Source: a virus (taxonomy: Duplodnaviria > Heunggongvirae > Uroviricota > Caudoviricetes). Taken from it: a stretch of 64,000 nt of DNA. Below are positions 135 to 28,914 of this stretch, in pieces. The position numbers and the translations under genes were made by a program. The DNA is taken from positions 185,360-249,359 of IMG/VR virus record IMGVR_UViG_3300032007_000006, one strand, 5' to 3'. Within the stretch, counting starts at the first letter, position 1, and each line of letters starts with the position of its first letter. The notes beneath the pieces are model-generated. The model made no database searches, was not told where the DNA came from, and saw nothing but the letters and a program-made list of their open reading frames with translations.

Positions 135-3134
135 CTAGGCTACATCCTTTTCCTTTGCAGATTCAATGGCTTCATGCTCCACTTCATCAGTATAGAACTG
201 CCTCTGTGGGAAGTCAAATGTCCTTCTTACAGGATGCCAGTTGGCAACCGTGGTCAAAAATCCAACCACCCTTGTCATATGATTGACGCAAGGCCTTCCG
301 CAGGTAGGACAGGTTTCTCCACCAACCCAGAGGTGCTTTTCTTCACAGCAATTGAGCAGATAGTTGATGGCCCAGTAGACAACGCCACATTTGGCCGCAT
401 ACTCCATCAGGGAGACCATCACCTTAGGATCCTTTATCTTCTCGCCAACATTGATGTGGGCAATGGCTCCACCAGAGAGGTGACGATCAAAGAGTCCCTG
501 CAGCTTCAGTCTGTCAAGCATGTCGGCCTTGACAATGAGTGGAATGAACTGATTGCTGTATAATGGAACGCCAATGTCATAGCCAAGCATCTTGTCCTTG
601 CTGGCCAGCTTGATTGCGGAAGTCTCTGCAGGAACCTGCTCTACATTGTGGGGAGCCTTGTACTGAGCTTCGGCGCGGTCGATCCATTTGTTGATGTTTT
701 TGAGAATCCTTAGAACAAGATTCTGTCCTTCTTCCGTGAGAATGTCCTTGCCAAGCAATTGAACGGCTTCATTGATTCCAACAACTCCAAATGTGCTGTA
801 CTGCTTACTGAGATCCATGTAGCCTTGGGTGTAGAGAGGAGCGGCACCAAGTTCAATGCGTTTTCGTACCAGCCGACGCTTGCAGGCATTGATCTTTGCG
901 GCAACAGCATAGATTTCCTCAAGACCTTCCATGAACTTGTCTACATCTCCCTTGGCCTTGTATGCAATGCGAGGAAGATTTGCAGTCACCACGCCAAGAG
1001 AGCCAATCTTGGTTGAACCTGCGCCAAAGGAGTTAAAGTATGGATTGTCCTTGTTTGAGCGCAGACGACAGCAGGAAGACAATGTGGACGTGTCTCCGTT
1101 GTATATGTTGATCCAGCCGTATTCAAGATTTGCATTGGCAATAAAGTTGAGGAACTCCTTGTCCTTGATAGAGCCGTCTTCCTCCTTGCAGAAACAGGCT
1201 GTAGTTACAGGGAACGTGATTGGACTTCTGGCCAGCTCCTCATTCATCACTTCAACATATATCTTCTGAAGAAGCTTCACAGTCTCTTTCTTGGCATTGT
1301 AGTCTGGGCAGAGGGAGTCAAGGAAGGTGTCATCATAGAGGGATATATTTGTGAATGCGGACTGATTTCCTCTAAACTCCCAGTTGACCGTGTAGACAAA
1401 TGCAGTCAATCTCTCCTTGATGTACTGCTCTGGGTTGCCAATCACTGTATGGCCATCCATTCCATTTTCAAGCAGAAGGTCTACATAGCGGGAAGCAACC
1501 AACAGAAGATCAGCGAAGCCAGTGGCTCCAAGAGTGGAATTTGCGGCTACTACAACAAACTGCTCAACCTGTCGTAGGAAAGTATCGAGTGATTTTGGTG
1601 GAAATACTCTAATTCGTTTAGAAATGCTGTCCAATCCATTGAATGCAATGTCATTTGTGCTGTAGTTAAAGCAGTTGTGGCCAATTATTCCATTGGTATA
1701 GAATCTGCCACTGGAAGTGGTGATGTCATAGACATACTTGTCGTTGAAATCAACTTCTTCCTTCTTTAAAACATGCATTGTTTCAAAACGACCATCAACT
1801 GCACGTTTCTTGAACAGCACGTCAACATGATCCTTTAGCTTGTAGGACATGTCAACAATGGAGTCATTTTCATCTGGAATAGAAAATGAAACTCTGTACA
1901 TTGGCTGCAGCTGGTCAATACGAGTATTTCCTCTTGCTGGAGCAACGCATGAAGTGCGAACACGATTCATTCCGATTCTAGTTGCAATTTCTGCAATTTG
2001 CTGCACCATCCCAAGACTAATCACGCGAATGTCCACAACGCCAGTATGCTTGTTTACCGTTCCATCAGTATCAATCAAACCAGCAACAAGAGCCTTTAAG
2101 GCATCAGTTTTCCAAATCAGACAGTCGCTTGGAAGTCTTTTGTTGAATGCACGAGTGCCAATGTTGACGGCATGCCAGAGTGCATCTTCCCTATGACCAA
2201 AATCTACAGAACGAACTGAATCTACATCATCAACCTTTCCAGTTGTAATGTTGTCATAAAGTTTTTCTATATGCTCCATGTAGGAACTTTCAAGAATGTT
2301 CTTTTGATGGAGAGTAAGCGTTGTTGGATTAAGGGAACCATCGCCAATCAAGGCTCCAGTAAGATAGGCTCTATTGAAGTCAACATCCATTGCATTTTGC
2401 ACAACATCAGCTGATGCAACGTCACATCCAAGGATTTCATCACCAATTTCAACATCGGAAGCAAACTTTTCGCTTCCATCAGCAAGAATGCAGGGATGAT
2501 CCTCGGTTACGCTAAAAACAGTACCTTTCTTCGTTTCAAAGCGGTACATCTTCTTTTTGTTCTTGTGACGAACTACTCGTTCAAGAGCAACCCATTTTCT
2601 GTCTTCATAGACTTCCAGTTCCAATGGCTTCAAGTCGGCTTCTTCCCAGTCCTCCTTTTTTACAACATAAGCCATGTTTTCAAAGAATAACTGTTCCAAA
2701 GTCATCATTCTAACTTTTTTGCCATCTTTGACAAGAATAGTTGTTCCAGGATGGTATGAATACGGACTGGCAATATCCGTAAAGTCGTTGATATAGATGT
2801 CGCCAGTCAACTGAGCTTCAATGATGTCATTTGCCGTTTCAAGACCATAGGCCTTCTTCAGCTCCTTCCACAGCAGAAAGTAGCTGTTGTAGCGTTTCAG
2901 TGGCTTTGGAAGTTCAAAGTTGTACTCAATGCCAGTCTTTGCCACGACATTGGCATTTGCATCAACAGACACGTCGGCTGATGGACCATTGGAGTTGAAG
3001 AAGTTCTTGCTGAACTTGTTCAAGTCCATCTGCTCTCCTATTCCATCAAGCGTGAACAGCTCCTTTCCATATTTCGACCAGAGATGCATCATCAAAGTGT
3101 CGAAGTCTGTGTCCCAAGAAATGCGAAAGTACAT
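135..3134 (-). CDS. nrdD: Anaerobic ribonucleoside-triphosphate reductase NrdD (class III RNR) interrupted by an intein; 999 aa
   Basis: C-terminal glycyl-radical motif TRVVGFL and the Zn-ribbon CPTCG..C; the length excess over ~600-aa NrdD is explained by the intein; GGAGGA SD before the ATG at 3134. Confidence 0.85.
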   Translation of the reverse strand: MYFRISWDTDFDTLMMHLWSKYGKELFTLDGIGEQMDLNKFSKNFFNSNGPSADVSVDANANVVAKTGIEYNFELPKPLKRYNSYFLLWKELKKAYGLETANDIIEAQLTGDIYINDFTDIASPYSYHPGTTILVKDGKKVRMMTLEQLFFENMAYVVKKEDWEEADLKPLELEVYEDRKWVALERVVRHKNKKKMYRFETKKGTVFSVTEDHPCILADGSEKFASDVEIGDEILGCDVASADVVQNAMDVDFNRAYLTGALIGDGSLNPTTLTLHQKNILESSYMEHIEKLYDNITTGKVDDVDSVRSVDFGHREDALWHAVNIGTRAFNKRLPSDCLIWKTDALKALVAGLIDTDGTVNKHTGVVDIRVISLGMVQQIAEIATRIGMNRVRTSCVAPARGNTRIDQLQPMYRVSFSIPDENDSIVDMSYKLKDHVDVLFKKRAVDGRFETMHVLKKEEVDFNDKYVYDITTSSGRFYTNGIIGHNCFNYSTNDIAFNGLDSISKRIRVFPPKSLDTFLRQVEQFVVVAANSTLGATGFADLLLVASRYVDLLLENGMDGHTVIGNPEQYIKERLTAFVYTVNWEFRGNQSAFTNISLYDDTFLDSLCPDYNAKKETVKLLQKIYVEVMNEELARSPITFPVTTACFCKEEDGSIKDKEFLNFIANANLEYGWINIYNGDTSTLSSCCRLRSNKDNPYFNSFGAGSTKIGSLGVVTANLPRIAYKAKGDVDKFMEGLEEIYAVAAKINACKRRLVRKRIELGAAPLYTQGYMDLSKQYSTFGVVGINEAVQLLGKDILTEEGQNLVLRILKNINKWIDRAEAQYKAPHNVEQVPAETSAIKLASKDKMLGYDIGVPLYSNQFIPLIVKADMLDRLKLQGLFDRHLSGGAIAHINVGEKIKDPKVMVSLMEYAAKCGVVYWAINYLLNCCEEKHLWVGGETCPTCGRPCVNHMTRVVGFLTTVANWHPVRRTFDFPQRQFYTDEVEHEAIESAKEKDVA
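1674..2759 (-). mobile_element. Intein inside nrdD carrying a LAGLIDADG homing endonuclease; the N-terminal boundary is approximate
   Basis: Block A-like SYHPGTTILVKDGKK, Block B TEDH, two LAGLIDADG motifs (LTGALIGDGSL and LVAGLIDTDGTV), C-terminal IIGHN followed by +1 Cys (CFNYS). Confidence 0.65.
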
Positions 3135-3171
3135 TATCAGTCCTCCGAGAAACTGGAAGTTAGTAACGGCC

Positions 3172-3180
3172 TATTTACAA
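3172..3180 (-). promoter_or_regulatory. TTGTAAATA late-promoter-like motif about 40 nt upstream of the nrdD ATG
   Basis: Same 9-mer recurs upstream of other genes in this window (see findings). Confidence 0.35.
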
Positions 3181-3237
3181 ATTAGAGTGTAATTTTTAGA
3201 GACTATAAAAATAAGCCGTGTCAATGAAATCAATATG

Positions 3238-3552
3238 TTACTGTATAATCTTGGATTTCTCTTCAGACTTTTTTTCTAGCTTGTCTTTTGTACGATTCGC
3301 TATGTTGAAGGTCATTTCATAGGCTTTAAGTGCGCTTTCCTTGGCTTTCTCATACTCCGGAAAGAATTCCAGACCAAGATTGAAAAGATAGGCCAGGAAG
3401 TATCCCTGCAGGATGCTGTTCTTCCATTCAATCTCTGGAATGGCCACAACCCTGCTGTCTTTTCTTTGCAGGTCTGCTTCAGTTTCATAGTCTGAATTAG
3501 CCGCATATTCCTTTGTCAAGTTTTTTGACAGCATTTCAAGTTCATTTTCCAT
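3238..3552 (-). CDS. Hypothetical protein (104 aa)
   Basis: ORF with an internal ATG preceded by AGGAGGATACAT. Confidence 0.5.
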   Translation of the reverse strand: MENELEMLSKNLTKEYAANSDYETEADLQRKDSRVVAIPEIEWKNSILQGYFLAYLFNLGLEFFPEYEKAKESALKAYEMTFNIANRTKDKLEKKSEEKSKIIQ

Positions 3553-3569
3553 ATGTATCCTCCTAATGC

Positions 3570-3601
3570 AAAAAGGAGGAGGGTCAATGCGGCCCTCCTC
3601 C
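3570..3601 (-). terminator. Rho-independent terminator (stem ggaggaggg/ccctcctcc plus T-run)
   Basis: 9-bp GC-rich stem followed by TTTTT on the minus strand, downstream of the 3630-4427 gene. Confidence 0.55.
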
Positions 3602-3629
3602 AGCATTTAATACGCGATGCTAGCGAAGT

Positions 3630-4427
3630 CTATGCAAGACGATCTGCCCATTCGGCAGCAAGATCCCAGAGACCGCGGTTGAAGCTAATGCTCTGTCCAA
3701 TGGAAGAGATTCCTCTTGTGTGAAAGCGGCGCTTGGGAGAACGGCCAGCCACGCCACCCTTGAAGATGTTCTCCTGCACCTTGTTAAAGGTGCTCCAGAG
3801 AGAGTCGTTGTTGTGATCCTCGTTGTTTCTCGCTTCCAGAAAGTCGGAAGGCTTGAGATAGGAGCGGGAGCTTTCAATGAAGTGAAGCTTGAGAGCCGCT
3901 TCTGCAAAATTGACCTGGCTGAGATAGTCCATGTGAATGCCGCGCCACTGGTCAATCTGATCATTCACTTGGGTGCCATGCGCCACAAAGTTTTTGGTTG
4001 CTTCGGCAATGTTTTCAAAGAGGGAGTCGCGTCCCATGTGACGGATTCTGGCCTGGGCAAACTCATCGCCAACCATGAGGCCATTGGCGCACACAAAGCG
4101 ATAGAGACCATAGTAGAGCTTGTAGGACGACTTGGCATCATGGGAATTGACAAGCACTACCTGCCCAGTCACGCCATTTTCATTCTCTTTAGCATTTTCG
4201 GCCTGAAAGACAACCACATGGCGAACAACGTCCGGATTATTCTTGCGAGGCTTCACCTGATTGGCCGAAACGGGATTCCAGCCTAAGTCCTGCATCAGAT
4301 GCACGACTTCGTGAGTGGGAACGGTGTTGTACTTCTTGGATACGGTTCCCTCTTCAGGAGCGCCAAAAATGGCCGGAATGCGAGAGGGGTCAAAGGCCTT
4401 GGGATCGAGGTGGTTGTATCCGAACAT
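3630..4427 (-). CDS. Hypothetical protein (265 aa); possibly a DUF932-like phage/plasmid protein
   Basis: Start MFGYNHL preceded by AGGAGGAAAGGAG; no catalytic motif recognised. Confidence 0.5.
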   Translation of the reverse strand: MFGYNHLDPKAFDPSRIPAIFGAPEEGTVSKKYNTVPTHEVVHLMQDLGWNPVSANQVKPRKNNPDVVRHVVVFQAENAKENENGVTGQVVLVNSHDAKSSYKLYYGLYRFVCANGLMVGDEFAQARIRHMGRDSLFENIAEATKNFVAHGTQVNDQIDQWRGIHMDYLSQVNFAEAALKLHFIESSRSYLKPSDFLEARNNEDHNNDSLWSTFNKVQENIFKGGVAGRSPKRRFHTRGISSIGQSISFNRGLWDLAAEWADRLA

Positions 4428-4520
4428 ATTGGCTCCTTTCCTCCTCATGGAGGGGATGGGGTTCTCTCAACTGACGAATACAGACTATCAAAGGCCTGGC
4501 CAGATGTCAAGCGATTTCGA

Positions 4521-5063
4521 TCATTTTTTTCGCGACTGCCGGACGCGCCGGCCAGCCTGGCCGTGCCGCTTCAATGTTGAAGAGGACGCTGGCATGGAAT
4601 TAAGTCTTGCAAGCGCCTCTTCATCAACCATGTCTGACTTTTCTATGTCTATATGCGTATACAAATCTCTGGAATGCTCTGTGACATATCTCTTGAGAAT
4701 CTTGTCAAAATATTCTCTGGCGTCAACAACAGCGTTTTCAAACTTTTTGTCCTTGTCTATCAGAACCATTGCTGAACGTTCAAGATGCCTCTGAACTGCT
4801 GGAGAAGCCTCAACAGCATACCATTGCGCCACTTTTGGATAGTTGAACTTGATCCATCTTGTGGCGCAGAGCTTCAGAAACTTGGCCTCTTCTTCGGAAA
4901 TGCTTCCTTTTTGCAGATAGACGTTTATTTCCCTGACGAGTTCCAGATAGTGTCCTGCATCTATGCAGTCATCCATCTCAACGCTTTCATCGGTTGGTTC
5001 ATATTTCGGAATTTTTGCCTCCCTTTTCAAAGGGGCTTCCTTCATTTCAATATCCATTTCCAT
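4521..5063 (-). CDS. Hypothetical protein (180 aa), partner-protein paralog A of the duplicated module
   Basis: Shares a conserved core FLKLCA[TS]RWIKF.Y.K.AQWYA..AS.A...HLE.SAMVLID with the 6136-6546 product. Confidence 0.6.
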   Translation of the reverse strand: MEMDIEMKEAPLKREAKIPKYEPTDESVEMDDCIDAGHYLELVREINVYLQKGSISEEEAKFLKLCATRWIKFNYPKVAQWYAVEASPAVQRHLERSAMVLIDKDKKFENAVVDAREYFDKILKRYVTEHSRDLYTHIDIEKSDMVDEEALARLNSMPASSSTLKRHGQAGRRVRQSRKK

Positions 5064-5072
5064 CTCATTCTC

Positions 5073-6155
5073 CTAGAAAAAGTTGTCTATAGAAGAGGAA
5101 CTGAATGTGGCGTCTTCAACTATTTCACATTTTTCATCTAAAAAACTGAATTTTCTATCTTCCACTTCAAGAAATGAAGTGTCATTCATGCATTCAGTTT
5201 CGTAGACTAAAGGAACCTTCCTGCAGAAGGAATCATCAACCACAAGAGGACAGGTATAGGTCCAGTTGACGCAATGATGAACCCTTCTAAAGGTTACGCC
5301 CATGCACGATACGGACACGGAAGACGGACATAGAACAGCAGAAGGAATGCTTTTGACATATGTACCAAAAGTCCGATACATGTCTGTAATTCCACCACTG
5401 GCCTGTTGAGTTGGAGTCTGGTCTATTGATGGCATGTCAAGAGTCAACGAAAGCTGACCACGCTTTCCATTCAGAATGTAGGCATTCACGTCATCATTGA
5501 ACCGTCCATAATATCTGTATTCCTTTCTGGTGTCTCCAAAAAAGACGTTCATGGCCTTCCATCGGTAGGAATATCTGGCCATGACTGAACCAACGCCGCC
5601 GATGAAGTCTCCAATCTGTGAAAAGGCCGTAATGTACAGCCATGGAGCAGAATTGAGAAGATGGAAATACTTGAGACAGCAATGATCAAAAACAGACAGT
5701 CCTTCGCTTTCTTCACGAGCAAAAAGGGCGGCCCTGATTCTTGGAAAGAATGCTTCTCCAGTGCTCTTCTTTATCATGGCCCTACGCATGACCACGTCAA
5801 CGTAGTCGTCATCCAGAACAATGAACCATCGGTATCCAAGTTCTCTTGCAATGCGGAACTGTTCATTTCTGGCCCATACTGTAGCCTTTCTTGAAAGGCT
5901 TTTTCCCCAGTAGCAGTCCACAAGATCCATGTCATATCGCTTTTCCGCTTCTTCCTTGCTGAAGACATAGATGGAGTCATCTCCAAACGTCTTTCTGTAT
6001 TCGCGAATGGTTGGATCATCATCTGAAAGGACAACTACACGCTTTGCATGAGAATTGACCTCATCCAGAAGCGCCCAAGTATGAGTCTTTAGAAATTCAG
6101 GACGAGTATAGGACAGAATCAATATAACATAGTCTTTAGGACTTTGTGGTCTCAT
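5073..6155 (-). CDS. GT-A-like (DxD) putative glycosyltransferase with a Cys-rich C-terminal region, paralog 1
   Basis: N-terminal VILILSYTRPEF (GT2-like), VVVLSDDD, and YWGKS..TVWARN.F.IA..GYRWFIVLDDDY; start taken at MRPQSPKDYV with a GAGGAG SD. Confidence 0.5.
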   Translation of the reverse strand: MRPQSPKDYVILILSYTRPEFLKTHTWALLDEVNSHAKRVVVLSDDDPTIREYRKTFGDDSIYVFSKEEAEKRYDMDLVDCYWGKSLSRKATVWARNEQFRIARELGYRWFIVLDDDYVDVVMRRAMIKKSTGEAFFPRIRAALFAREESEGLSVFDHCCLKYFHLLNSAPWLYITAFSQIGDFIGGVGSVMARYSYRWKAMNVFFGDTRKEYRYYGRFNDDVNAYILNGKRGQLSLTLDMPSIDQTPTQQASGGITDMYRTFGTYVKSIPSAVLCPSSVSVSCMGVTFRRVHHCVNWTYTCPLVVDDSFCRKVPLVYETECMNDTSFLEVEDRKFSFLDEKCEIVEDATFSSSSIDNFF

Positions 6156-6546
6156 CTTTGCTGTACTCCTCAATGCTTCTGTCCGAAATGTCACGCTTTA
6201 GCACCTTGTCTATATGTCCAGCACCTTTGACTACTCCATATTCAACGGCCTTGTCCAAATCAATGAGAACCATTGCCGACTTTTCCAGCAAATGCTTCAT
6301 TGCTGAACTGGCTTTTGTTGCATACCATTGAGCAGTCTTTCCATAATGAAACTTGATCCATCTGGACGCACACAGCTTCAAAAACGTTGCTTCCGACTTT
6401 GAAATTTCTCCTTTTTTCAAGGAACTGTTGATATAGTTTAAAAGTTCAACATAATTGTCCACGTCAACGCAATCGTTTAGAGAATAGTCGGCGTCAGATG
6501 GTTCAAAAGGAGGAATTGCAAATTTTGTAGTATACTTTTCTTCCAT
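6136..6546 (-). CDS. Hypothetical protein (136 aa), partner-protein paralog B
   Basis: Paralog of the 4521-5063 product; its 3' end overlaps the start of the GT-like gene. Confidence 0.6.
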   Translation of the reverse strand: MEEKYTTKFAIPPFEPSDADYSLNDCVDVDNYVELLNYINSSLKKGEISKSEATFLKLCASRWIKFHYGKTAQWYATKASSAMKHLLEKSAMVLIDLDKAVEYGVVKGAGHIDKVLKRDISDRSIEEYSKDETTKS

Positions 6547-6558
6547 TTACCCTCTTCC

Positions 6559-7626
6559 TCAGCAGAAGTCATTGATTGACGCTTCTTCAAGAGACATGCT
6601 TTCAACAACCTCACACTGTCTGTCCATAATCCTGTATTTTTTCTTCCCGCTGGGAACAGTTTTATTATGCATGCATTCCGACTGAAAGTCAAGAGGTTTT
6701 TCTCTGCACAGAGATTCGTCCACAACCATTGGACAGGTAGTGGACCATTTAATAAGATGATGCACCCTAGGAACAACTGAACCCATGCATGAAACTGATA
6801 CCGATGATGGACATGCAACTACAGAAGTCAAGCTCTTGATATAAGTTCCAAATGTCTTGTAGATATCAGTTATTCCACCAGCAGATTTCTGCGTTGGCTC
6901 CTGATTTATTACCACCTGCATCATGGTCAAGGACATTTGGCCAAGTTTTCCATTCAGAATGTATCCATTAACGTCATCATTCAATTTTCCGTAGTATCGG
7001 TACTCCTTTTCCGTATCACAGAAAAAGACGTTCATTGCCTTCCATCGGTACGGTATCCTGGTAAAAATTGAATTTATTCCACCAACAAAGTCTCCACACT
7101 GGGCCGTGGCCGTCACATGCATCCATGGCGCTGAATTGAGAACATTGAAATACTTGACACAGCACTTGTCAAATATTGACCCATGTTCATCGGAAGGAGC
7201 GAAAATAAGTTCCTTGAACGTAGGGAAAAACTCGGTCTTGTCATCATTGCGGATCATCTTCTTCCGCATGACAATTTCTCTGTAGTCATCATCCAGTACA
7301 ATGAACCATCTGTATCCAAGACTTCTCGCAATCTCAAATTGAGCATTTCTGGCCCATACTGTGGCCTTTCTTGTAAGACTTTTTCCCCAGTAGCAGTCTA
7401 TCGTGTCTATGTCATACTTTCTTTCAATTTCTACTTTGCTGAAAACTGCTATATTCTCCTTTCCATACATTGTTTCATATTCAGGAATGGTTTTGTCGTC
7501 ATCAGACAGAACAACAACTCTTCTGGCCTTGGACTTGACCTTGTCCAGAATATGCCATGTATGACTCTTTAAAAATTCTGGACGTTCATGAGAAAGTATC
7601 AAAATGACGAAGTCCTTGCAGTCCAT
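6559..7626 (-). CDS. GT-A-like (DxD) putative glycosyltransferase with a Cys-rich C-terminal region, paralog 2
   Basis: Roughly 50% identical to the 5073-6155 product across its length, including the LDDDY and C-terminal CPSSVSVSCMG..HH...W..TCP motifs. Confidence 0.5.
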   Translation of the reverse strand: MDCKDFVILILSHERPEFLKSHTWHILDKVKSKARRVVVLSDDDKTIPEYETMYGKENIAVFSKVEIERKYDIDTIDCYWGKSLTRKATVWARNAQFEIARSLGYRWFIVLDDDYREIVMRKKMIRNDDKTEFFPTFKELIFAPSDEHGSIFDKCCVKYFNVLNSAPWMHVTATAQCGDFVGGINSIFTRIPYRWKAMNVFFCDTEKEYRYYGKLNDDVNGYILNGKLGQMSLTMMQVVINQEPTQKSAGGITDIYKTFGTYIKSLTSVVACPSSVSVSCMGSVVPRVHHLIKWSTTCPMVVDESLCREKPLDFQSECMHNKTVPSGKKKYRIMDRQCEVVESMSLEEASINDFC

Positions 7627-7651
7627 TGATTGTCATATCTCCATCGCTTAC

Positions 7652-8056
7652 TTATGTGTACACCTTGCGCTTTTTAAGCCACCACCAGAAATCCCATGAC
7701 AGTTTTCTGCTGGGCATCTGTCGTTTTGCTACTGTTATCCAAGGAACGTCATCAAAGTTTGCATGAGTGAGAATGCCCCAGTCCATATATGCAATCTCGC
7801 TCAACCATCCATTGGGATAGTTGCCACCCCATATCCTCCAATAGCGTTCCCATTTCCAGTGAACGCCAAAATGCTCCTTGCAGAGTATCCATCCTCTGTA
7901 TCCACTCCAGTCAATCTGATTTGTGGTGTCCATTATCTCCTTGAGATATATGTCTGCTATTTCGGAATATTCATGCTTTCTGGGAGAAATGAATATTTCA
8001 AGGCCTAGCATGCTTCTGGCTCCATAGGCTTTTCTATGCGATCTCCAATCTGCCAT
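7652..8056 (-). CDS. Hypothetical Trp-rich protein (134 aa)
   Basis: ORF only. Confidence 0.4.
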   Translation of the reverse strand: MADWRSHRKAYGARSMLGLEIFISPRKHEYSEIADIYLKEIMDTTNQIDWSGYRGWILCKEHFGVHWKWERYWRIWGGNYPNGWLSEIAYMDWGILTHANFDDVPWITVAKRQMPSRKLSWDFWWWLKKRKVYT

Positions 8057-8226
8057 CCATTGAACAGCCTGTTGTTGAAGACTGGTGCCTTGACGCCGCT
8101 GCAGGATGTCAGCGTCTTTACTGGACCTTCTGGATGAACTTCAAGACATCCAATTTCAAGATGCTTTCCTGTCCATATCCAGTAGTATCCATTTTCATCA
8201 GGAAGATGTTCTGTCCAGCTCGTCAT
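8005..8226 (-). CDS. Hypothetical small protein (73 aa)
   Basis: Internal ATG preceded by AAGGAGG. Confidence 0.35.
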   Translation of the reverse strand: MTSWTEHLPDENGYYWIWTGKHLEIGCLEVHPEGPVKTLTSCSGVKAPVFNNRLFNGWQIGDRIEKPMEPEAC

Positions 8227-8290
8227 TTTCTCTACCTCCTTAAACTGCATGTCAAGCATGCTTCATGCTAGAGTTTTTGTCAAGCAAAAT

Positions 8291-9220
8291 CTAGATTTTC
8301 AGGTTTGAAACTTGTGGCTTCAAGTCGGAAGTCATTTTGCAGCATGTACATCCAATCTTCTTCCATTGATCACTAATCTTGTCTAAATTTGCGGGAAGAT
8401 GAATGTCTGCTATGCAGACCTGCTTCATCTTCATCTTCTTGGCATACTGAAGAAGCGATGCAGCTAGTCCATCAAGAATGTCCTTGTTCAAGTCATCTGG
8501 ATTCATGTTGAACGCTGGAATGTACAGTTCCGAATCCCTGCAATGAGCAAAGACAACGCATTCAAACTTTTCAAAGGAGCAGATTGAAAATGGCCTGAAC
8601 ATTTTTCTGTTGTCATACCATTCGCGGACCATTTCAATCTCTTCTGGAAGATTGACGCTTTTGTCCAGATAGAGAGTCATTTCATTCCAGATGCGATTCC
8701 AGCTGGCTTCATCAAACTCCCTGCATCGAATGGGCAGACGCTTCGCATTCTTTTCATTGCCTGCAAGAATGTAAGTTGCATCTGAAATCTTGTAGCCTTC
8801 GCTGGCATAGAAGGCCATTCCTTCGCTGTTTGCAGCCACGCATCCAAGATTGATTTTCAATGCATTCCTTTCGCGGCAGATTTTATAGAACTCCTTCATT
8901 AAACTGTATCCAATGCATTTGCGCCTGAAATTTTTGTCAACATACAGTTCCTCAATGCGAAATACGCTTTCTGAAGGAATATACTTCAAGTATCCAATCA
9001 CTCTGCCTGTGTCTAAATCTCTTGCATAAACTACGCCAAAATGCTTTCCTGGTTCAGTAGATTCCTCTTTCTCTTCTTTGTCTTCAACATCTGCTGAAAT
9101 GGAATCAAGCAGTCGATCAGTTTCTTCATTCAGTTTTTGACTTAATTCCTGCAACTGATCAAGCAATGCATCATCTGTAGTGTGGCTTCCAGGATGCAGA
9201 CTTCCAATAGTCAATTTCAT
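8291..9220 (-). CDS. GNAT-family N-acetyltransferase domain protein with an about 150-aa C-terminal extension (309 aa)
   Basis: GNAT core VIGYLKY...ELYVDKNFRRKCIGYSLMKEFYKICRERNALKINLGC. Confidence 0.55.
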   Translation of the reverse strand: MKLTIGSLHPGSHTTDDALLDQLQELSQKLNEETDRLLDSISADVEDKEEKEESTEPGKHFGVVYARDLDTGRVIGYLKYIPSESVFRIEELYVDKNFRRKCIGYSLMKEFYKICRERNALKINLGCVAANSEGMAFYASEGYKISDATYILAGNEKNAKRLPIRCREFDEASWNRIWNEMTLYLDKSVNLPEEIEMVREWYDNRKMFRPFSICSFEKFECVVFAHCRDSELYIPAFNMNPDDLNKDILDGLAASLLQYAKKMKMKQVCIADIHLPANLDKISDQWKKIGCTCCKMTSDLKPQVSNLKI

Positions 9221-9231
9221 TCGCTCTCCTT

Positions 9232-9269
9232 GAATAAAAAGAAAGGCTCCCTTCCCGTTGGGAGCCTTT
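9232..9269 (-). terminator. Rho-independent terminator after the OMP gene
   Basis: Stem aaaggctccc/gggagccttt plus T-run on the minus strand. Confidence 0.55.
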
Positions 9270-9300
9270 CAGTGCATCTTTCTATCTGCTGACGTTCAGA

Positions 9301-9945
9301 CTAGAAAGTAAAGCGGAAGGCAAGCTGAGTGTCAATGCCGCGAATCTCGGCCTTGGTGTGGCGCTTTTCAATGCGGCCAAGGTCAACATAGCGGGCAGAC
9401 AGGTCAATGCCGAAGTTTTCAGTAACGGGAACATAGAAGCCGCCACCAGCATTCCAAGCGAAGGTCGTGGCGCTGTGAGTGCCAGAGAACCAGTTGGCGC
9501 CAAGGCCAGCGGTGATGTAGGGCTTCACATAGGGAACAGTGTCAAAGTCATATGCGGCGTTGAAGAAGACAGTGTGGCTGTCAAAGTCAACGGAAGTGCG
9601 ATCAAGATTGATCTTGGTGTTGCCAGTGTAGAGATATTCAACTTCCAGACGGAAGGGAAGGTCATACTTCGGACGGAAATTGTAGCCTACGGAGAGACCA
9701 GTGTTCCACTGGTTGGTGTAGCCGTGACGCCAGGACTGCGTGAGTGCGCCACGCACGTCATCCTGCATCTGGAAAGTCACGCCGACTTTTGGTGCAATGT
9801 AGAAGCCCCATACGTTGGAAGCAGGTTCAGCAGAAACTGCGGCAGGCTGAGCATTCTTTTCCCAGCAGTAGTTCTCGGCCTGAGCGGCCACGGAAGTGAA
9901 AACAAGAGTGGCCACGATGGCCAGAACACTAAAAATGCGTTTCAT
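9301..9945 (-). CDS. Phage-encoded outer-membrane beta-barrel protein (OmpW/OmpX/Ail-Lom-like), 214 aa
   Basis: Signal peptide MKRIFSVLAIVATLVFTSVAAQA; alternating amphipathic beta-strands; C-terminal ...LAFRFTF with a terminal aromatic. Confidence 0.7.
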   Translation of the reverse strand: MKRIFSVLAIVATLVFTSVAAQAENYCWEKNAQPAAVSAEPASNVWGFYIAPKVGVTFQMQDDVRGALTQSWRHGYTNQWNTGLSVGYNFRPKYDLPFRLEVEYLYTGNTKINLDRTSVDFDSHTVFFNAAYDFDTVPYVKPYITAGLGANWFSGTHSATTFAWNAGGGFYVPVTENFGIDLSARYVDLGRIEKRHTKAEIRGIDTQLAFRFTF

Positions 9946-10045
9946 TATGCAAATCTCCTATAATGATATGTTGTTCATTGTCCTGCTCGGTTAAAGATAT
10001 TGCACTTCAATCAAGCAAAGGTATTTATGAGTGAAAAATCTTGTA

Positions 10046-10288
10046 CTAGGTAGGTTTCATCCTGACCTCCTTTTGCGAAGCAAGATACTGCCTTAGAGCA
10101 ACTACGGCCAGATGAATGCATTGCCGCTGGACCTCCTTTTGATTTCCTTCTTCCATTGCCTTCACAACGTCAGCAAATTCGGCGGCAATGCATTCAAGGC
10201 CTTTGAAGCGTGGATGAACTTCAATGGCCTTGGCAAGATGTTTTTTCATCTCGCCAAGAAATCCATCAACATCCTCTTGACTAGACAT
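10046..10288 (-). CDS. Small all-alpha protein (80 aa), possibly a MazG/HisE-like NTP pyrophosphohydrolase
   Basis: E..AAEFADV.KAMEE pattern; its start overlaps the stop of the upstream gene (ATGTCTAG). Confidence 0.3.
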   Translation of the reverse strand: MSSQEDVDGFLGEMKKHLAKAIEVHPRFKGLECIAAEFADVVKAMEEGNQKEVQRQCIHLAVVALRQYLASQKEVRMKPT

Positions 10289-11846
10289 TCCCAATTCCAG
10301 CACGTTCAAGAATGCAGTTATAGTTGGAAAGCGTCTTGAGCATGAACTTCATCGGATTGATGTCGCCACCAACGATGTACTGGAAGAGAGTCGGACTAAA
10401 TCCAGACACAAGAATGGTGCCATATTCATCTCTGGACACAGGAACGTTGGCCTGTCTGGAGTTGACATTCCAGAACACCAGCGTAGGACGCTCAACCTTG
10501 GTCTTCTTGAAGAGAAGGTCAATCTTGTGGAAGAGAGTCTTCTTCCTTGCATCCAGCTTCTTCTTGGCCTCTTCCCGAGTATTGGAATACCACCACTCCT
10601 CTGGATTCTCTATCTCATCAAACTCCATGTCGGAGATGATGACCAGATTCTTCGGACAGTCCTCTGGATTGGAGTCCTGTGCCAGAGAAATGTAGAGCTT
10701 GAACATCTTCTCGATGTTGGTGTTAAGACCACCATGCCTTTCCATCTTCAAGAAACGGCTGTAGAGCGAATCTTCAGGATCCAGCTTGAGACATTCTGGA
10801 TGCTGAGAGAATGTAATCACGCAGTTCTTGAAAGGTCCCTTGGCCTTCTCAGCAAAGTACATTGCAAGAGACGTGGAAACAAAGATGGGTACAGGCTTGG
10901 AAGAGTTGTTAGCCATGCTTGTGCAATAGGTGCCATACATGGAGCCAGACACGTCTGCAACCACGAGAGAGGAAGTACCATTTGTCCAGTCGGGAAGAGC
11001 CTTCCACATCTCTTCAACGACAGAATCCCTTGCATTTACATTGCATTCCTTGCGTACAAGATCGTATGGCATCAGAGTGCCAGAGTTGATCTTCTCCTTT
11101 CCCTTGGAAACATTCTCAATGAATGCCCCATACCTCTCGCCGTCATGCTTCCAGAAGGCCTGACGATACTTGAGACCAGCACCAGAGGGAAGCTTGGAGT
11201 ATTCCACTTCATCCCACTTGCCTTCGGAGATCTTCTGCTCCACAACATTGATATACTTGCGGAGAGGAACGATCAACTTGCGAGCATTCCTATCGGAGCC
11301 ACAGCAGGCTTCAGAAATGCGTCTGGCATGACGGATGGCCTCTGGATTGTGCCTGTTGTTGGCCAGAGGAAACCACTTTGCAAGCAGGGAAATGCTCTTT
11401 TCCTCTTCCATGAGATCCCAGTCTTCCTTGATCTGATTCTTGACCACCCTGCAGGCCACGTCAAACCATTCAGGCTTTGCATCGTGCATGATGGAAAAGA
11501 GGTCGGACCAGCGGCCATACTCTCCAATCTCCTTGAAGAGGGACTCAACCACTTCTTCATCATCAATCTTATTCAGAAGAAACTTGAAGCACCTCACGAA
11601 GGAAGAGCGTTCGCCCATGCCGTTTCGCACGTCACGCAGAAAAAAGAGATTCTTGACTGCAAGAGGAAGGTCCTCATTGAGAGCCTTGGCATACAGCTCC
11701 TCAATGCGCGGATCTCCTCGCATGCCACCAGCCATGGAGAAAAAGTCGAGATTTGCGTCCGTGGTTGTATTAAGACAAACTGCACCATTTTCGGTGAAGG
11801 TCTTGGTGGCCTCTTCGGCAAAGTTCTGGGCGAAGGTATTCATCAT
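10281..11846 (-). CDS. vWA-domain protein (MIDAS DVSGSM) with an N-terminal TROVE/Ro60-like region (DUF2828-like), 521 aa
   Basis: LVVADVSGSMYG matches the vWA MIDAS D-x-S-G-S motif; a 444-aa antisense ORF was rejected. Confidence 0.55.
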   Translation of the reverse strand: MMNTFAQNFAEEATKTFTENGAVCLNTTTDANLDFFSMAGGMRGDPRIEELYAKALNEDLPLAVKNLFFLRDVRNGMGERSSFVRCFKFLLNKIDDEEVVESLFKEIGEYGRWSDLFSIMHDAKPEWFDVACRVVKNQIKEDWDLMEEEKSISLLAKWFPLANNRHNPEAIRHARRISEACCGSDRNARKLIVPLRKYINVVEQKISEGKWDEVEYSKLPSGAGLKYRQAFWKHDGERYGAFIENVSKGKEKINSGTLMPYDLVRKECNVNARDSVVEEMWKALPDWTNGTSSLVVADVSGSMYGTYCTSMANNSSKPVPIFVSTSLAMYFAEKAKGPFKNCVITFSQHPECLKLDPEDSLYSRFLKMERHGGLNTNIEKMFKLYISLAQDSNPEDCPKNLVIISDMEFDEIENPEEWWYSNTREEAKKKLDARKKTLFHKIDLLFKKTKVERPTLVFWNVNSRQANVPVSRDEYGTILVSGFSPTLFQYIVGGDINPMKFMLKTLSNYNCILERAGIGNV

Positions 11847-13517: not shown

Positions 13518-14336
13518 TTATGACTTGAACTTCTTTAGTTTAGTCACTGGAAATATCTTTGTAGCATCTCTCAAAATCTTAGTCAAATCGGCACGTCTGT
13601 ACTTCACTGTGCGGCTGATGACCTTCTTCTGAGCGACCTTGCCAATGTAGGCATTGACTGCTATTGCCCATTCAAAGTCAAAAGTCTTCGAGTTGTTGAA
13701 TCCATTTGGATGATGACGCATCAACCATGCCATATGATCGCTGTCGCCAGTCAAGGCTACTTCAAAAACAATGGTTCGAGACTTGTTTACAAACAAATGG
13801 GAAACCCAGGTCTCCTTCCAGTAAGATTTCATGTTGATCACGTCAACCACAGTAGAGGCCTTTTCAATATGAGTGAATGGCTCTCCAAAAAAGTTTGTCA
13901 AATGAGAAACGCATCCAAAAAAGTCTATTTTCTTGAGACATTTCAGAATGGCCTCATAAATTGGACCACGAGTCTTGAGAATGTCCTGTCTAAATGTCTC
14001 TCTATTGGCATCTCTTGCAGCCCTTGAAGTTTTAAACGTCTGACCAGCCTGTCTATAGGCCTGTGCATTTCCACGCATGCTTCCAGTTCCTGCTGAAGCG
14101 CCAGCAACAGTCTTGACAGACTTGCCAATATATTGCTTGAGAACGTCATTCGCGGCATTAATGTCCTGCATCTTTTCAAGGCTGCCACCTCTGTCTGGAT
14201 GGTTTGTCAATGCAAGCTTCTTGTGAAGCTGACGCAGTTCAATGGCCGTTTTTGGAAACTCCGAGAGTCCAAAGATTTTCAGTGCGGTCATTGGATCCAT
14301 TATGGCTTCTTCAAGCCACTCTTTAAAGCTTTTCAT
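13518..14336 (-). CDS. J-domain (DnaJ-like, HPD) protein with an N-terminal capsid-targeting-sequence-like peptide MKSFKEWLEE (272 aa)
   Basis: LHKKLALTNHPDRGGS is a canonical J-domain helix II plus HPD; the N-terminus matches the T4 CTS consensus MKTYQEFIAE; paralog of the 14392-15213 product. Confidence 0.7.
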   Translation of the reverse strand: MKSFKEWLEEAIMDPMTALKIFGLSEFPKTAIELRQLHKKLALTNHPDRGGSLEKMQDINAANDVLKQYIGKSVKTVAGASAGTGSMRGNAQAYRQAGQTFKTSRAARDANRETFRQDILKTRGPIYEAILKCLKKIDFFGCVSHLTNFFGEPFTHIEKASTVVDVINMKSYWKETWVSHLFVNKSRTIVFEVALTGDSDHMAWLMRHHPNGFNNSKTFDFEWAIAVNAYIGKVAQKKVISRTVKYRRADLTKILRDATKIFPVTKLKKFKS

Positions 14337-14391: not shown

Positions 14392-15213
14392 CTACTTCAT
14401 TGGAATTCCGTAATATGCTGTCTTTATCTTTGATGGAGAAAGCAGCTTTTTTGGATCCTTTAAAATGGAAAGGTCTACACTTTTATATTTTTTCTTTCTT
14501 AAAACAACTTTCTTGTTTGAAGCCCTGCCTTTATAGAAATCAACGGCGATTGCCCATTCAAAGTCAAAATTCTTTGAATTTTCAAATCCATTGGAAGTAT
14601 TACGCATGCGCCAGGCCATGTGATCCGTATCGCCAGTTAATTCAATGCCAAAAACTTCCATTCCAGACTTGTCTGTAAAGACATAGCGAATCCAAGGCTC
14701 CTTGGCATGATCCTTCATTTTAACAATTTCTTCAACAGTGGATATTTTTGTAAGCGTATGTTCAAATTTTATACCCAATACCTCTGAAAAGTGCTTTGCG
14801 AATACAAAAGTAGGAAGTTTTTCAAGAAAAGCCGCAATCGCTCTATATATTGGTCCATGCGTCTTGAGAATGTCCTTCTCAAATTCGTCACGATTTGCAT
14901 TGGCTCTGGCTCTTGAGGTTTTAAACGTTTCTCCAGCCTGCCTATATGTTTGAGATGCGCTGGTCCTTGTTCCACTTCTAGCAATGCTCTTGACGGACTT
15001 GCCAATCCACTGCTTCAATACGTCGTTAGCCGCATTGATGTCCTTCATCTTTTCAAGACTTCCACCACGATCAGGATGGTTTGTCAAGGCAAGCTTCTTA
15101 TGCAAGTTTCTTAATTCAGTTGCAGTCTTTGGAAATTCGGAAAGACCAAAAATTTTCAACGCTGTTTTTGGATCCATAATGGCTTCAATAAGCCAATCTT
15201 TGAATGATTTCAT
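14392..15213 (-). CDS. J-domain (HPD) protein with N-terminal CTS-like MKSFKDWLIE (273 aa), paralog
   Basis: LHKKLALTNHPDRGGS; preceded by an AGTAAATAA motif 20 nt upstream. Confidence 0.7.
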   Translation of the reverse strand: MKSFKDWLIEAIMDPKTALKIFGLSEFPKTATELRNLHKKLALTNHPDRGGSLEKMKDINAANDVLKQWIGKSVKSIARSGTRTSASQTYRQAGETFKTSRARANANRDEFEKDILKTHGPIYRAIAAFLEKLPTFVFAKHFSEVLGIKFEHTLTKISTVEEIVKMKDHAKEPWIRYVFTDKSGMEVFGIELTGDTDHMAWRMRNTSNGFENSKNFDFEWAIAVDFYKGRASNKKVVLRKKKYKSVDLSILKDPKKLLSPSKIKTAYYGIPMK

Positions 15214-23622: not shown

Positions 23623-24117
23623 TTAGTCTGTTGGAATTTTCACTCTGTCCATTTCATAGGTCTTTTGAAGAAACTTGGATACAAGTTCTGGAAATTTTTG
23701 ATAGACAAACTTCTTTCCCTTTATCATTCTACCTATCATGCCAAACGTTGAAGTTGGACGAGTTGGAAGAGTCCATATGGTATCATGTTCATCTACGAAA
23801 ATAATGCAGTTCTGCTTGTATTTTCTTCCATAATAGTAGAAAAAGCGTTTCAACATTTCCAAATCTATGTCATCTGAAGGAAAGGACACCATGCATTCAA
23901 TCTCTTCAAGATTTTCAGCGTACTTTCCCGTAATTTTCAGTATGTCTAGATCTAATTCATCCTTCATGGCCCTTCTAAGAAACTTTGTATTTGTCAAATT
24001 TTGACTGTATGGAAGTCCACCTTGCCAGGCTGAATTGATAATAAATCTTGTTCCATGATTCCATCTGGCCTTAAACTCATAGTCATAAACTTCATTAAGC
24101 AGAATATCATTCATCAT
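23623..24117 (-). CDS. Hypothetical protein (about 164 aa)
   Basis: ORF only. Confidence 0.4.
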   Translation of the reverse strand: MMNDILLNEVYDYEFKARWNHGTRFIINSAWQGGLPYSQNLTNTKFLRRAMKDELDLDILKITGKYAENLEEIECMVSFPSDDIDLEMLKRFFYYYGRKYKQNCIIFVDEHDTIWTLPTRPTSTFGMIGRMIKGKKFVYQKFPELVSKFLQKTYEMDRVKIPTD

Positions 24118-28339: not shown

Positions 28340-28353
28340 TAATATGTCCCCTG

Positions 28354-28590
28354 CTACATATGGGCGTCAAGTAGTCTCTTGGCTACTGCGTTCATTAAAA
28401 CAATCTTGAATCGGTTTGATGGACGATTTGGTTCCCTGTCTAGAGAACTGGCCAGTGAAGTTGGCCATCTGCTTGAAGGAGCGTCTTCCCACCCAAGCGA
28501 ATCTCCATCATATATGCTTTCCATTTCCATGTCCATTGGAGACGACTTGTATGGAAGTCTCTCCATCAATGGTCTCTTTTCCTTCGGCAT
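28354..28590 (-). CDS. Hypothetical small protein (78 aa)
   Basis: Start MPKEKRPL with an AAGGAGGG SD. Confidence 0.3.
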   Translation of the reverse strand: MPKEKRPLMERLPYKSSPMDMEMESIYDGDSLGWEDAPSSRWPTSLASSLDREPNRPSNRFKIVLMNAVAKRLLDAHM

Positions 28591-28877: not shown

Positions 28878-28914
28878 GAAGAGAGAAATTTTTATGGAAA
28901 GCTGTAAAGAAGAT

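Follow-up and report, generated by a model that had tools for sequence, protein, structure and literature searches.

Tandem duplication of a TAGT-family glycosyltransferase and a small partner protein: a probable DNA glycosylation cassette in a T4-like jumbo phage

We analyzed a 64,000-nucleotide stretch (the window) of IMG/VR virus record IMGVR_UViG_3300032007_000006, which a preliminary description had attributed to a T4-like phage. This attribution held: rIIB, T4 RNase H, the gp44/62 clamp loader, UvsW, UvsY, the T4 neck protein, and the gp45 clamp were all present. The genome is of jumbo size, at least 326 kb (contig 326–352 kb), and the genes considered here are located in the variable island between nrdD and rIIB. 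A megablast search with positions 3000–9500 against 50,697 phage records returned no match, so that no close sequenced relative was available and genomic context was taken from metagenome contigs.

The module comprises four tightly packed minus-strand genes in the order GT1-P1-GT2-P2 (Table 1). All four open reading frames (ORFs) were verified at these coordinates, are intact, and have good ribosome-binding sites. Specifically, GT2 starts at the ATG at position 6155, which is preceded by a GAGGAG Shine-Dalgarno sequence; an alternative GTG at 6194 would yield a protein of 373 aa.

Table 1. Features of the glycosyltransferase-partner module and its upstream gene string (positions are those of the window).
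Feature	Position	Strand	Description
GT1	6559..7626	-	355 aa, TAGT-family glycosyltransferase, GT-A fold
P1	6136..6546	-	136 aa, stand-alone partner-domain protein, P1-type
GT2	5073..6155	-	360 aa, TAGT-family glycosyltransferase, GT1 paralog
P2	4521..5063	-	180 aa, partner-domain protein with conserved basic C-terminal tail, P2-type
Span with residual direct DNA repeats	5443..7552		Repeat pairs 5443-5697/6926-7180 and 5773-6072/7253-7552
Two small ORFs	7652..8226	-	73 aa and 119 aa, directly upstream of GT1; gene calls in identical contigs L009-L012
GNAT acetyltransferase	8291..9220	-	309 aa, PF00583 E 8e-11; heads the same gene string

The proposal that a two-gene unit had been duplicated in tandem was borne out by the ORF coordinates, by residual DNA repeats, and by phylogenetic trees. 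The glycosyltransferases (GTs) shared 59% identity over 353 aa (E 1e-162) and the partners 51% over 126 aa (E 2e-45), so that the original estimate of roughly 50% was slightly low for the GTs. Two direct repeats of 300 and 255 nt, with 71–73% identity, retained a start-to-start spacing of 1,480–1,483 nt, which is the length of one GT-plus-partner unit, and the duplication is therefore still readable in the DNA, far beyond chance. The trees support a lineage-specific duplication, dating to the ancestor from which this phage lineage descends. The pairing of GT1 with P1 and of GT2 with P2, as originally described, is less certain, because elsewhere the partner gene is found upstream of, and overlaps, its own GT gene, an arrangement that P1 and GT2 fit here, the 3′ end of P1 overlapping the GT2 start by 20 nt. 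Against this usual order, P2 is not followed by a GT gene and GT1 is not preceded by a partner gene, and a degenerate third partner copy was sought upstream of GT1 without one being found.

The island varied in content among relatives. Arrays of the form GT-GT-P-GT-P (L006, L099) and P-GT-P-GT (L005) occupied the same position, as did versions with sugar-activating genes swapped in, namely NTP_transf_3 and a CofD-like gene with P-GT (L101), or P-GT followed by NTP_transf_3 (L098). With such variable arrays, of two to three GTs or with NTP-transferase and CofD-like swaps, the nrdD-rIIB island stands out as a modification cassette that evolves fast. GT2 was orthologous to G3 of L099 (bootstrap 100). 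The two small ORFs upstream of GT1 were conserved in close relatives, had neither a family match nor a partner-domain signal, and probably belong to the transcription unit of the module, as their position suggests. The GNAT gene was conserved together with the array in L006, L007, and L009–L011, its position in L101 being held by NTP_transf_3 and the CofD-like gene, and it may form part of the modification cassette. A strong terminator-like hairpin (9241–9270) just upstream of the GNAT gene was the only regulatory element that looked real; the promoter scan was uninformative, with 10 sites against 9.3 expected. An outer-membrane beta-barrel gene also lies just upstream, as does the GNAT gene. 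Elsewhere in the genome there are other tandem paralog pairs of similar divergence, for example a DnaJ-like pair with 60% identity.

Both large proteins belong to Pfam family PF20691 (TAGT, TET-associated glycosyltransferase), with scores of 50.9 bits for GT1 (E 2.4e-13) and 62.5 bits for GT2 (E 6.7e-17) against a curated gathering threshold of 27.5 bits, and both covered nearly the whole 205-position model. Precomputed Pfam labels for identical contigs agreed with this assignment. Additionally, GT1 matched PHROG 842 (E 6e-37), while NCBIfam contained no model for GT1, GT2, P1, or P2. The TAGT family was defined by Iyer et al. 2013, as cited in Burke et al. 2021, and since its characterized members glycosylate DNA, the suggestion that these are DNA-glycosyltransferase family proteins was well founded. 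Their description as GT-A-like was likewise confirmed by the predicted structure, the AF2 model of GT1 being a confident GT-A fold (nucleotide-diphospho-sugar transferase; pLDDT 85.8, pTM 0.84), soluble and globular, with no signal peptide or membrane segment. The metal-binding DxD and donor motifs of this fold were found, with R...DDD...DDDY intact in both GTs (R15, D42–44, D112–114–Y115), and the SDDD and LDDDY motifs first noticed in the sequence were located at residues 41–44 and 111–115. All 38 residues that are invariant across 82 family members were retained in GT1 and GT2. The enzymes are indeed unlike T4 alpha- and beta-GT, having a GT-A rather than a GT-B fold and no tblastn match to them. 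However, the fold does not make the module undescribed, as had been supposed, because GT-A DNA glycosyltransferases have already been published from T2/T6 and in association with 5mYOX.

The reported C-terminal Cys/His cluster exists in the sequence, but it is not a conserved domain, and only R-x-H-H (R287, H289, H290) was present family-wide. We rejected a family-wide zinc-binding domain, as most tail cysteines were confined to the closest relatives and GT1 residues ~311–355 had low pLDDT. A lineage-specific metal site or disulfides may nevertheless exist around C272, C280, C298, and C306.

What is new at this locus is the partner domain, the large enzymes being members of a known family. P1 and P2 matched the C-terminal ~110 aa of "ParB-like" proteins that are encoded just upstream of the same TAGT clade (clade HMM, E 1.5e-61 and 1.4e-60, respectively), and in fused homologs their alignment was confined to the part that follows ParB_N. 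Both contain the motif Y-T-x-K-x-x-x-P-x-(Y/F)-E-P, followed by the core F-L...A-x-R...F...A-x-x-Y-A...E-x-S-A-x-V-x-x-D, and the previously noted FLKLCA.RWIKF.Y.K.AQWYA core is present; the invariant residues were P12, E15, L35, F55, L56, A60, R62, F66, A72, A76, A79, E88, and D96. In P1 the helical core (residues 15–95) was modeled with pLDDT >90. Neither protein had a Pfam match at E<=1, P1 had no PHROG match, and the partner fold matched no PDB entry or known fold. Specifically, the ParB_N nucleotide-binding domain (PF02195) was absent from both (Pfam, E<=1), an HMM built from the N-termini of the fused proteins matched nothing in the window, and neither a canonical ParB HTH DNA-binding domain nor a ParB C-terminal dimerization domain was found in P1 or P2. 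The partner domain is acidic (median net charge -9, pI 4.7), as would be expected of a protein adaptor more than of a DNA-binding protein. The two partner types differed in their tails, which are mostly acidic in P1-type proteins and basic in P2-type proteins; the P2 tail has a net charge of +9 and a conserved ...RAGR+(V/I)xQx+K motif. Both types formed supported orthologous groups (bootstrap 98.5–99.5; P2-type, 98.5) that persist in three or more diverged phages.

A profile search for the partner domain recovered 843 database relatives. A broader search gave 59,833 matches, mostly generic ParB since the alignment (A4) had kept ParB_N columns, and the informative set comprised ~1,057 representatives at E<=1e-30. 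That each unit has its own dedicated small partner, as first proposed, was upheld by a near-absolute linkage across viruses. Starting from the partner, a TAGT-clade GT was found beside it in 80/80 viral loci, and starting from the GT, a partner was found in 78 of 80, or 78/78 evaluable loci, the two exceptions being GTs at contig ends. The two genes overlapped in 69/77 loci and were separated by no more than 20 nt in 72/77; in the window, the viral loci, and all T4-like relatives examined, the partner was in the immediate same-strand neighborhood of an extension-bearing TAGT. ParB_N-fused partner proteins were located upstream of TAGT genes in viruses of E. coli, Lactobacillus, Nocardia, and Haloarcula, while the short stand-alone form was also present in Vibrio phages. 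Overall, the partner was fused to ParB_N in 51/81 cases; one natural fusion (P0351) combines TAGT, ParB_N, and the partner domain in a single chain, and another joins a methyltransferase-like domain to ParB_N and the partner domain. Neither the window and its flanks nor the T4-like relatives contained a ParB_N ORF, and only 3/29 loci with a stand-alone partner had one. The survey shows a TAGT clade that apparently never travels without the partner domain and shows that this partnership can do without the ParB nucleotide-binding domain. The module was distributed across T4-like jumbo phages, small temperate phages, a haloarchaeal virus, and the Rac-like prophages of E. coli, in which it was present in 1,567/5,426 complete genomes (~29%). 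We found no published description of the function of ynaK, the partner in the E. coli ynaK-TAGT pair, and no functional link in the literature between ParB and a glycosyltransferase.

We consider it probable that the four genes form a tandemly duplicated two-component glycosylation cassette, in which a TAGT-family GT and a partner act together, most likely to place sugar on the phage's own DNA. Each GT-A enzyme would use an NDP-sugar and a DxD-bound metal, and the sugar would most likely be transferred to a hydroxylated pyrimidine or to a sugar already attached. The partner most likely binds its own GT directly and, by analogy with ParB-dependent thymine dioxygenases, would activate the GT or target it to duplex DNA. 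The partner here has lost the ParB nucleotide-binding domain, which suggests that this domain is dispensable and that the partner domain is the constant subunit. After duplication, the copies diverged into P1-type and P2-type partners and distinct GT types. Under pressure from host defenses, the two units would likely have come to attach different sugars, to form different linkages, or to build a glycan in successive steps.

The nature of the acceptor bears on this reading. Within the window and ~20 kb of flanks, ~84 kb in total and about a quarter of the genome, we found no ThyA-type hydroxymethylase (PF00303), gp56-type dCTPase, or TET/JBP protein (PF12851), and tblastn queries with T6 ggt, gp42, gp56, and a-gt had no matches in the window, flanks, or relatives. 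The window does encode ThyX and a dUTPase/DCD-like protein, indicating that ordinary thymine is made. Avoidance of palindromic restriction sites (observed/expected ratio of 0.34 for CCGG; median of 0.79 for 4-mer palindromes, against 1.00) is a weak argument against blanket DNA protection. Among 80 viral module loci there was no ThyA-superfamily ORF, and 148 sampled neighbors from 72 loci included no TET/JBP or thymidylate-synthase family with even two members. The complete 38-kb genome of phi jlb1 and the E. coli Rac-like prophages, all of which carry the module, likewise lacked a candidate hydroxylase, and the clade's acceptor may thus not be a hydroxymethyl base. The P-G arrangement, which usually adjoins terminase genes, accounted for 66/80 and 71/80 loci, so that in most viruses the cassette consists of the partner and the TAGT enzyme alone. 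A self-sufficient two-component system that has no need of a hydroxymethyl-pyrimidine, glycosylating a canonical base or another native DNA group with the partner as a new class of GT-activating or DNA-access subunit devoid of the nucleotide-binding domain, is unlikely; if real, it would be widespread, and would have been duplicated in this phage to diversify the glycan. The same observations speak for the broader possibility, which we nevertheless judge unlikely, that the DNA is glycosylated on some acceptor other than a phage-made hydroxymethyl-pyrimidine, be it a canonical base or another group; the partner, with or without ParB_N, would then give access to the duplex. Such a system would be chemically self-sufficient, unlike all characterized TAGT pathways, and we found no literature precedent for a GT-A enzyme that attaches sugar directly to canonical DNA bases by an O- or N-linkage. 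Moreover, T4-like phages often encode hydroxymethylases far from their GT genes, and the search saw only that quarter of the genome; in T6, gp42 and ggt are adjacent.

The absence of a hydroxymethyl base source from the ~84 kb could also mean that the GTs act on a protein or cell-envelope polymer, with the partner an unrelated adaptor. TarP, for instance, is a prophage enzyme that glycosylates wall teichoic acid, and the outer-membrane beta-barrel and GNAT genes just upstream would suit such a role, as would the ~65% of GT contigs that had no neighboring base-modification enzyme (Pyle et al., bioRxiv 10.1101/2023.12.21.572611). However, Pfam places both GTs in TAGT rather than in an envelope GT family, the partner is so often fused to ParB_N, a DNA-associated fold, and in one case to a methyltransferase-like domain as well, and the module resides among replication or packaging genes in bacterial as well as archaeal viruses, whose envelopes differ greatly. 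Together with the soluble model of GT1, these observations make an acceptor other than DNA rather unlikely. It is highly improbable that the duplication is redundant or decaying, with one GT or partner an inactive relic lacking a second specificity. The unpaired positions of P2 and GT1, the varying copy number among relatives, and the similarly diverged DnaJ-like pair would agree with decay, yet every family-invariant residue was kept in both GTs, both partner types are supported orthologous groups, the P2-type tail motif is conserved, and no ORF is disrupted.

DNA glycosylation is a main route by which phages escape restriction and CRISPR, and is itself targeted by type IV defenses. If the duplicated cassette acts as we propose, the activation of DNA-modifying enzymes by ParB-derived proteins, an idea so far shown only for thymine dioxygenases (PMC13229309), would extend to glycosyltransferases. 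The module is usually found without a visible source of hydroxymethyl base and occurs in about 1,500 of the sequenced E. coli prophages, which makes the question of its acceptor very testable.

Among known systems, T4 also has two glycosyltransferases in one phage, and its alpha-/beta-GT pair diversifies the DNA glycan as a counter-defense (PMC13216743). Unlike GT1 and GT2, the T4 enzymes have GT-B folds, are mutually unrelated rather than tandem paralogs, and lack partner proteins; neither the window nor the relatives gave a tblastn match to T6 a-gt at E<=1. The beta-glucosyl-HMC-alpha-glucosyltransferase (ggt) of T2/T6 is assigned to PF20691 (PMC13216743, PMC13390438), and thus shares the Pfam family, as well as a GT-A DxD architecture and a T-even-like phage background; it is itself a second glycosyltransferase that extends a DNA glycan. 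In contrast, T6 ggt had no detectable relation to the present clade (tblastn, clade HMM, hhalign probability 0.3%), is 261 aa long without the clade's C-terminal extension (TQ..GGxT..GTYxKS..PS..RxHH), has no partner gene, and adjoins the gp42 hydroxymethylase, for which no counterpart was found in the ~84 kb. The phage GT-A enzymes associated with 5mYOX, and their resemblance to the base-J GT, have been published (Pyle et al., Cell Rep 2024; bioRxiv 10.1101/2023.12.21.572611). By published description, these 5mYOX/ThyS-associated GTs and trypanosome JGT share the GT-A fold and R...DDD...(E/D)DY motifs with GT1 and GT2, and the phage enzymes also occur in successive arrays with ParB-like genes among their neighbors. 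They differ in having been characterized with a source of 5hmC, none being visible in the ~84 kb here, and the partner domain was not singled out in that study.

The closest parallel to the partner comes from ParB-dependent 5mYOX, in which a DNA-modifying enzyme is paired with an adjacent, cognate, non-catalytic ParB-derived protein (PMC13229309). To act on dsDNA, 5mYOX176 depends on ParB176, with specificity for the cognate pair; the helper has no obvious DNA-binding domain, and the dependent enzyme has a C-terminal extension of its own. In the same study the GT-associated dioxygenases were the ParB-independent ones (PMC13229309). The enzyme there is a dioxygenase rather than a GT, and its ParBs need both the nucleotide-binding and the C-terminal domain; here PF12851 was absent from the window and flanks, the partners have no nucleotide-binding domain, and the enzyme encoded next to them is a GT. 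Although its chemistry is a transglycosylase base exchange and DpdB retains an NTPase domain, the DpdA/DpdB system for 7-deazaguanine DNA modification is a further case of a ParB-like protein acting as accessory to a DNA-modifying transferase.

The tandem duplication of a two-gene module reported in the preliminary description was upheld, as all four open reading frames were real, with the coordinates and strand listed below. The two paralogous glycosyltransferases (GT1 and GT2) shared 59% identity (E 1e-162) and the two small partner proteins (P1 and P2) shared 51% (E 2e-45), each family being present in exactly two copies in the window. The duplication is still readable at the DNA level, in two repeats, one of 300 nt and one of 255 nt, with 71-73% identity and a spacing of 1,480-1,483 nt, equal to one unit of glycosyltransferase plus partner. 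The string GT1-P1-GT2-P2 was closely packed and had good Shine-Dalgarno sequences, with a 12-nt spacer between GT1 and P1, a 20-nt overlap between P1 and GT2, and a 9-nt spacer between GT2 and P2. A second tandem pair of paralogs was located elsewhere in the window (13518-14336 and 14392-15213, minus strand), encoding two ~272-aa proteins with 60% identity (E 1e-114), a divergence close to that of the glycosyltransferase pair, and Pfam matches to the DnaJ J-domain that were weak and below threshold.

Genes of the glycosyltransferase-partner cassette in the window
Gene	Coordinates	Strand	Length
GT1	7626..6559	minus	355 aa
P1	6546..6136	minus	136 aa
GT2	6155..5073	minus	360 aa
P2	5063..4521	minus	180 aa

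Both glycosyltransferases belonged to the TAGT family (PF20691), with Pfam scores of 50.9 bits for GT1 and 62.5 bits for GT2 against a curated threshold of 27.5 bits, and both matched PHROG 842 ('beta-glucosyl-HMC-alpha-glucosyltransferase'). Each retained all 38 positions that were invariant across 82 family members, including the published GT-A DNA-glycosyltransferase motifs R...DDD...(E/D)DY and a clade-specific C-terminal extension, TQ..GGxT..Y..GTYxKS..PS..RxHH, which had a separate PHROG match (31222). The Cys-rich tail noted earlier was not a family feature: most of the Cys residues occurred only in the closest lineage, and residues 311-355 were predicted with low confidence. Nor was an undescribed combination of folds borne out: in family, fold, and motifs, GT1 and GT2 are new, divergent members of the known TAGT family. 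Comparison with the real sequence of T6 ggt by tblastn, a clade HMM, and hhalign detected no relationship, placing the window clade remote from the characterised T6 enzyme.

P1 and P2 had no match in Pfam, PHROG, or NCBIfam. Using tblastn, we found that they corresponded to the last ~110 residues of proteins bearing a 'ParB-like' annotation, the genes for which were directly upstream of, and overlapped, a glycosyltransferase homolog in E. coli siphophages, Lactobacillus phage phi jlb1, Nocardia phage NTR1, and the haloarchaeal virus HHTV-2, while 191-kb Vibrio phages had a short stand-alone partner like that of the window. In the long forms, Pfam confined ParB_N to the first ~90 residues, and P1 and P2 aligned only after it. 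A profile search recovered 843 partner relatives, which were either stand-alone (125-180 aa) or fused to ParB_N (240-256 aa). The domain was acidic family-wide (median net charge -9, pI 4.7), making a protein adaptor a better fit than a DNA binder. P2-type partners had a conserved basic tail in common (net +7 to +9); P1-type tails were strongly acidic in two close relatives, L006 (net -11) and L099 (net -8), and that of the window was close to neutral (net 0).

Counted from the partner side, a same-strand TAGT gene was present at 80/80 IMG/VR loci, the two genes overlapping in 69 of 77 cases and having a gap of at most 20 nt in 72 of the 77. Counted from the glycosyltransferase side, a partner was present at 78 of 80 loci, and the remaining two had the glycosyltransferase at the contig end. 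One database protein (P0351, 534 aa) was a single polypeptide made up of TAGT, ParB_N, and the partner domain, and another (P0385) combined a methyltransferase-like domain with ParB_N and the partner domain; based on these fusions, the ParB_N-partner module may act with DNA-modifying enzymes of more than one kind. Neither the window with its flanks nor the T4-like relatives contained a ParB_N reading frame, and only three of 29 viral loci with stand-alone partners had ParB_N nearby. Given this rarity and the near-universal linkage, the partner domain is the constant companion of this glycosyltransferase clade, and the ParB nucleotide-binding domain is optional. The earlier observation of the module stands and its reading is right in part, the partner being dedicated and the enzyme family a known one. 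The earlier assignment of P1 to GT1 and of P2 to GT2 is not secure, since the general rule, a partner upstream of and overlapping its glycosyltransferase, fits P1 with GT2.

The arrays of relatives were variable. Close, syntenic relatives (L006/L007 and L099/L100) had the order GT-GT-P-GT-P, and a more distant T4-like contig (L005) had P-GT-P-GT. At this island, another T4-like relative (L098, 9613-11778) had a partner, a glycosyltransferase, and then NTP_transf_3, while in L101, syntenic with the window, NTP_transf_3, a 582-aa CofD-like protein, and one partner followed by one glycosyltransferase (6819-10740) replaced the GNAT gene and GT-P-GT-P. CofC and CofD form a phospholactyl-transfer pair, and the resemblance of the NTP-transferase/CofD pairing to it hints, by analogy, at phosphodiester-linked decorations. 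In neighbour-joining reconstructions, P1-type and P2-type partners fell into two orthologous groups that were sisters (bootstrap 99.5 and 98.5), GT2 was orthologous to the third glycosyltransferase of L099 (bootstrap 100), and all glycosyltransferase copies of the window lineage formed one clade relative to those of L005 and L101. These topologies indicate that the two-gene unit was duplicated in the ancestor of the lineage and that a glycosyltransferase was gained or lost later. Arrays with several glycosyltransferases also occurred outside this lineage: P-G-G, G-P-G, G-G-P-G, and P-G-P-G recurred in other viral contigs.

The window comprised a T4-like replication and nucleotide-metabolism region encoding an intein-containing NrdD, T4-type RNase H, the gp44/gp62 clamp loader, UvsW, UvsY, a T4 neck protein, ThyX, a dUTPase/DCD-like protein, an HD protein, and rIIB, with the module placed between nrdD and rIIB. 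The interval from nrdD to rIIA is the DNA-modification neighbourhood compared in T-even-like phages of the Durham collection (PMC13390438). Identical proteins on contigs of 326,324 bp (ena:ERZ27256887:k141_1848205) and 352,419 bp point to a jumbo phage, for which no close sequenced relative was found. The gene string that holds the array is headed by a GNAT acetyltransferase (8291-9220, minus strand; 309 aa, with a ~160-aa C-terminal extension that lacks an assigned function), and a strong terminator-like hairpin (9241-9270) immediately precedes that gene; hypothetically, this enzyme could acetylate a sugar. Nearby was an outer-membrane beta-barrel protein (OMP_b-brl / Opacity / OmpA-like; 9301-9945, minus strand), its position being kept in L006, L009-L011, and L101. 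Either side of the cassette were a DUF2828/DUF7788 protein (10281-11846) and a DUF932 protein (3630-4448), both on the minus strand, kept in relatives and from families frequent on mobile elements.

Inteins were numerous: that of NrdD (135-3134, minus strand) had a LAGLIDADG domain, ThyX was next to a 124-aa Hint/intein fragment (61821-62195, plus strand), and an intein-bearing fragment of DNA polymerase B lay just outside the window (L094:17893-18546). A protein of the S-adenosylmethionine lyase family, a known kind of anti-restriction function, was also present (23623-24117, minus strand, E 5.6e-8). A Dam-like N6-adenine methyltransferase (MethyltransfD12, L094:13136-13933), ~2 kb past the right end of the window, gives this phage at least one further DNA-modifying enzyme. 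GC skew and gene orientation switched at ~28000-29000, with the cumulative GC-skew minimum at ~28 kb and genes running leftward before ~28 kb and rightward after, which marks a border between divergently transcribed regions or, possibly, an origin of replication.

Our favoured, and probable, reading is that the cassette encodes two TAGT-family enzymes that glycosylate phage DNA, and that each is bound by a cognate partner subunit which enables or directs its action on duplex DNA. The acceptor is where this reading is weakest: Pfam identified no ThyA-type hydroxymethylase or TET/JBP protein, and T6 gp42 and gp56 used as queries had no match, in all window reading frames plus ~20 kb flanks, about a quarter of the genome. 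None of the 80 module loci had a ThyA-superfamily reading frame, and among 148 sampled module neighbours there was no TET/JBP or thymidylate-synthase family with at least two members. Likewise, no candidate hydroxymethyl-base gene was found in the complete genome of phi jlb1, a 38-kb temperate phage in which the ParB-like gene is followed by TAGT and terminase (L093, 11350-14321) and directly preceded by a 1.4-kb stretch free of annotated genes, or in Rac-like prophages of E. coli. In the latter, the module (E. coli chromosomes, L001:5611-7285 and L102:6959-8675) is located between trkG and the gene for the terminase small subunit; 1,567 of the 5,426 complete genomes of E. coli carry it, 889 at full length. 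Its ParB_N-partner gene is named ynaK by PGAP, often flagged partial, beside a TAGT 'hypothetical protein', and neither has a published function. More broadly, ~65% of glycosyltransferase contigs are without a neighbouring base-modification enzyme (Pyle et al., bioRxiv 10.1101/2023.12.21.572611).

There is a small but real chance that the acceptor is a DNA group other than a hydroxymethyl base, a reading in line with these negative searches. That the acceptor is not DNA at all is unlikely. Palindromic restriction sites were rarer than expected in the window (4-mer palindromes, median observed/expected 0.79 versus 1.00 for non-palindromes; CCGG 0.34, TCGA 0.57). AGTACT, ATCGAT, and TGCGCA were absent from the window, where only ~5-7 copies of each were expected. 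Such avoidance speaks, if weakly, against a blanket protection of the DNA. Redundancy or decay of the duplicate copies is very improbable, both glycosyltransferases having kept a full set of invariant residues.

Under the favoured reading of paired glycosyltransferases and partners, the two enzymes would add sugar to phage DNA, each bound by its partner subunit, and may differ in specificity. The duplication and divergence of both genes, with the swaps in relatives involving NTP-transferase, CofD-like, and GNAT genes, fit a glycan diversified under selection by host defences. As far as the searchable literature shows, four elements have not been described: the dedicated partner domain itself, its ability to do without the ParB nucleotide-binding domain, the absolute linkage in both directions between it and a single TAGT clade, and the absence of any visible hydroxymethyl-base source for that clade. 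The model for the partner's putative role is the ParB-dependent thymine dioxygenase 5mYOX176, which depends on its cognate ParB when the substrate is dsDNA but not otherwise, is specific to that cognate pairing, and carries a C-terminal extension of its own (PMC13229309). However, both ParB domains are required in that system, and the dioxygenases associated with glycosyltransferases are the ParB-independent ones (PMC13229309), so the partner and TAGT make up a system other than the published 5mYOX176/ParB176 one.
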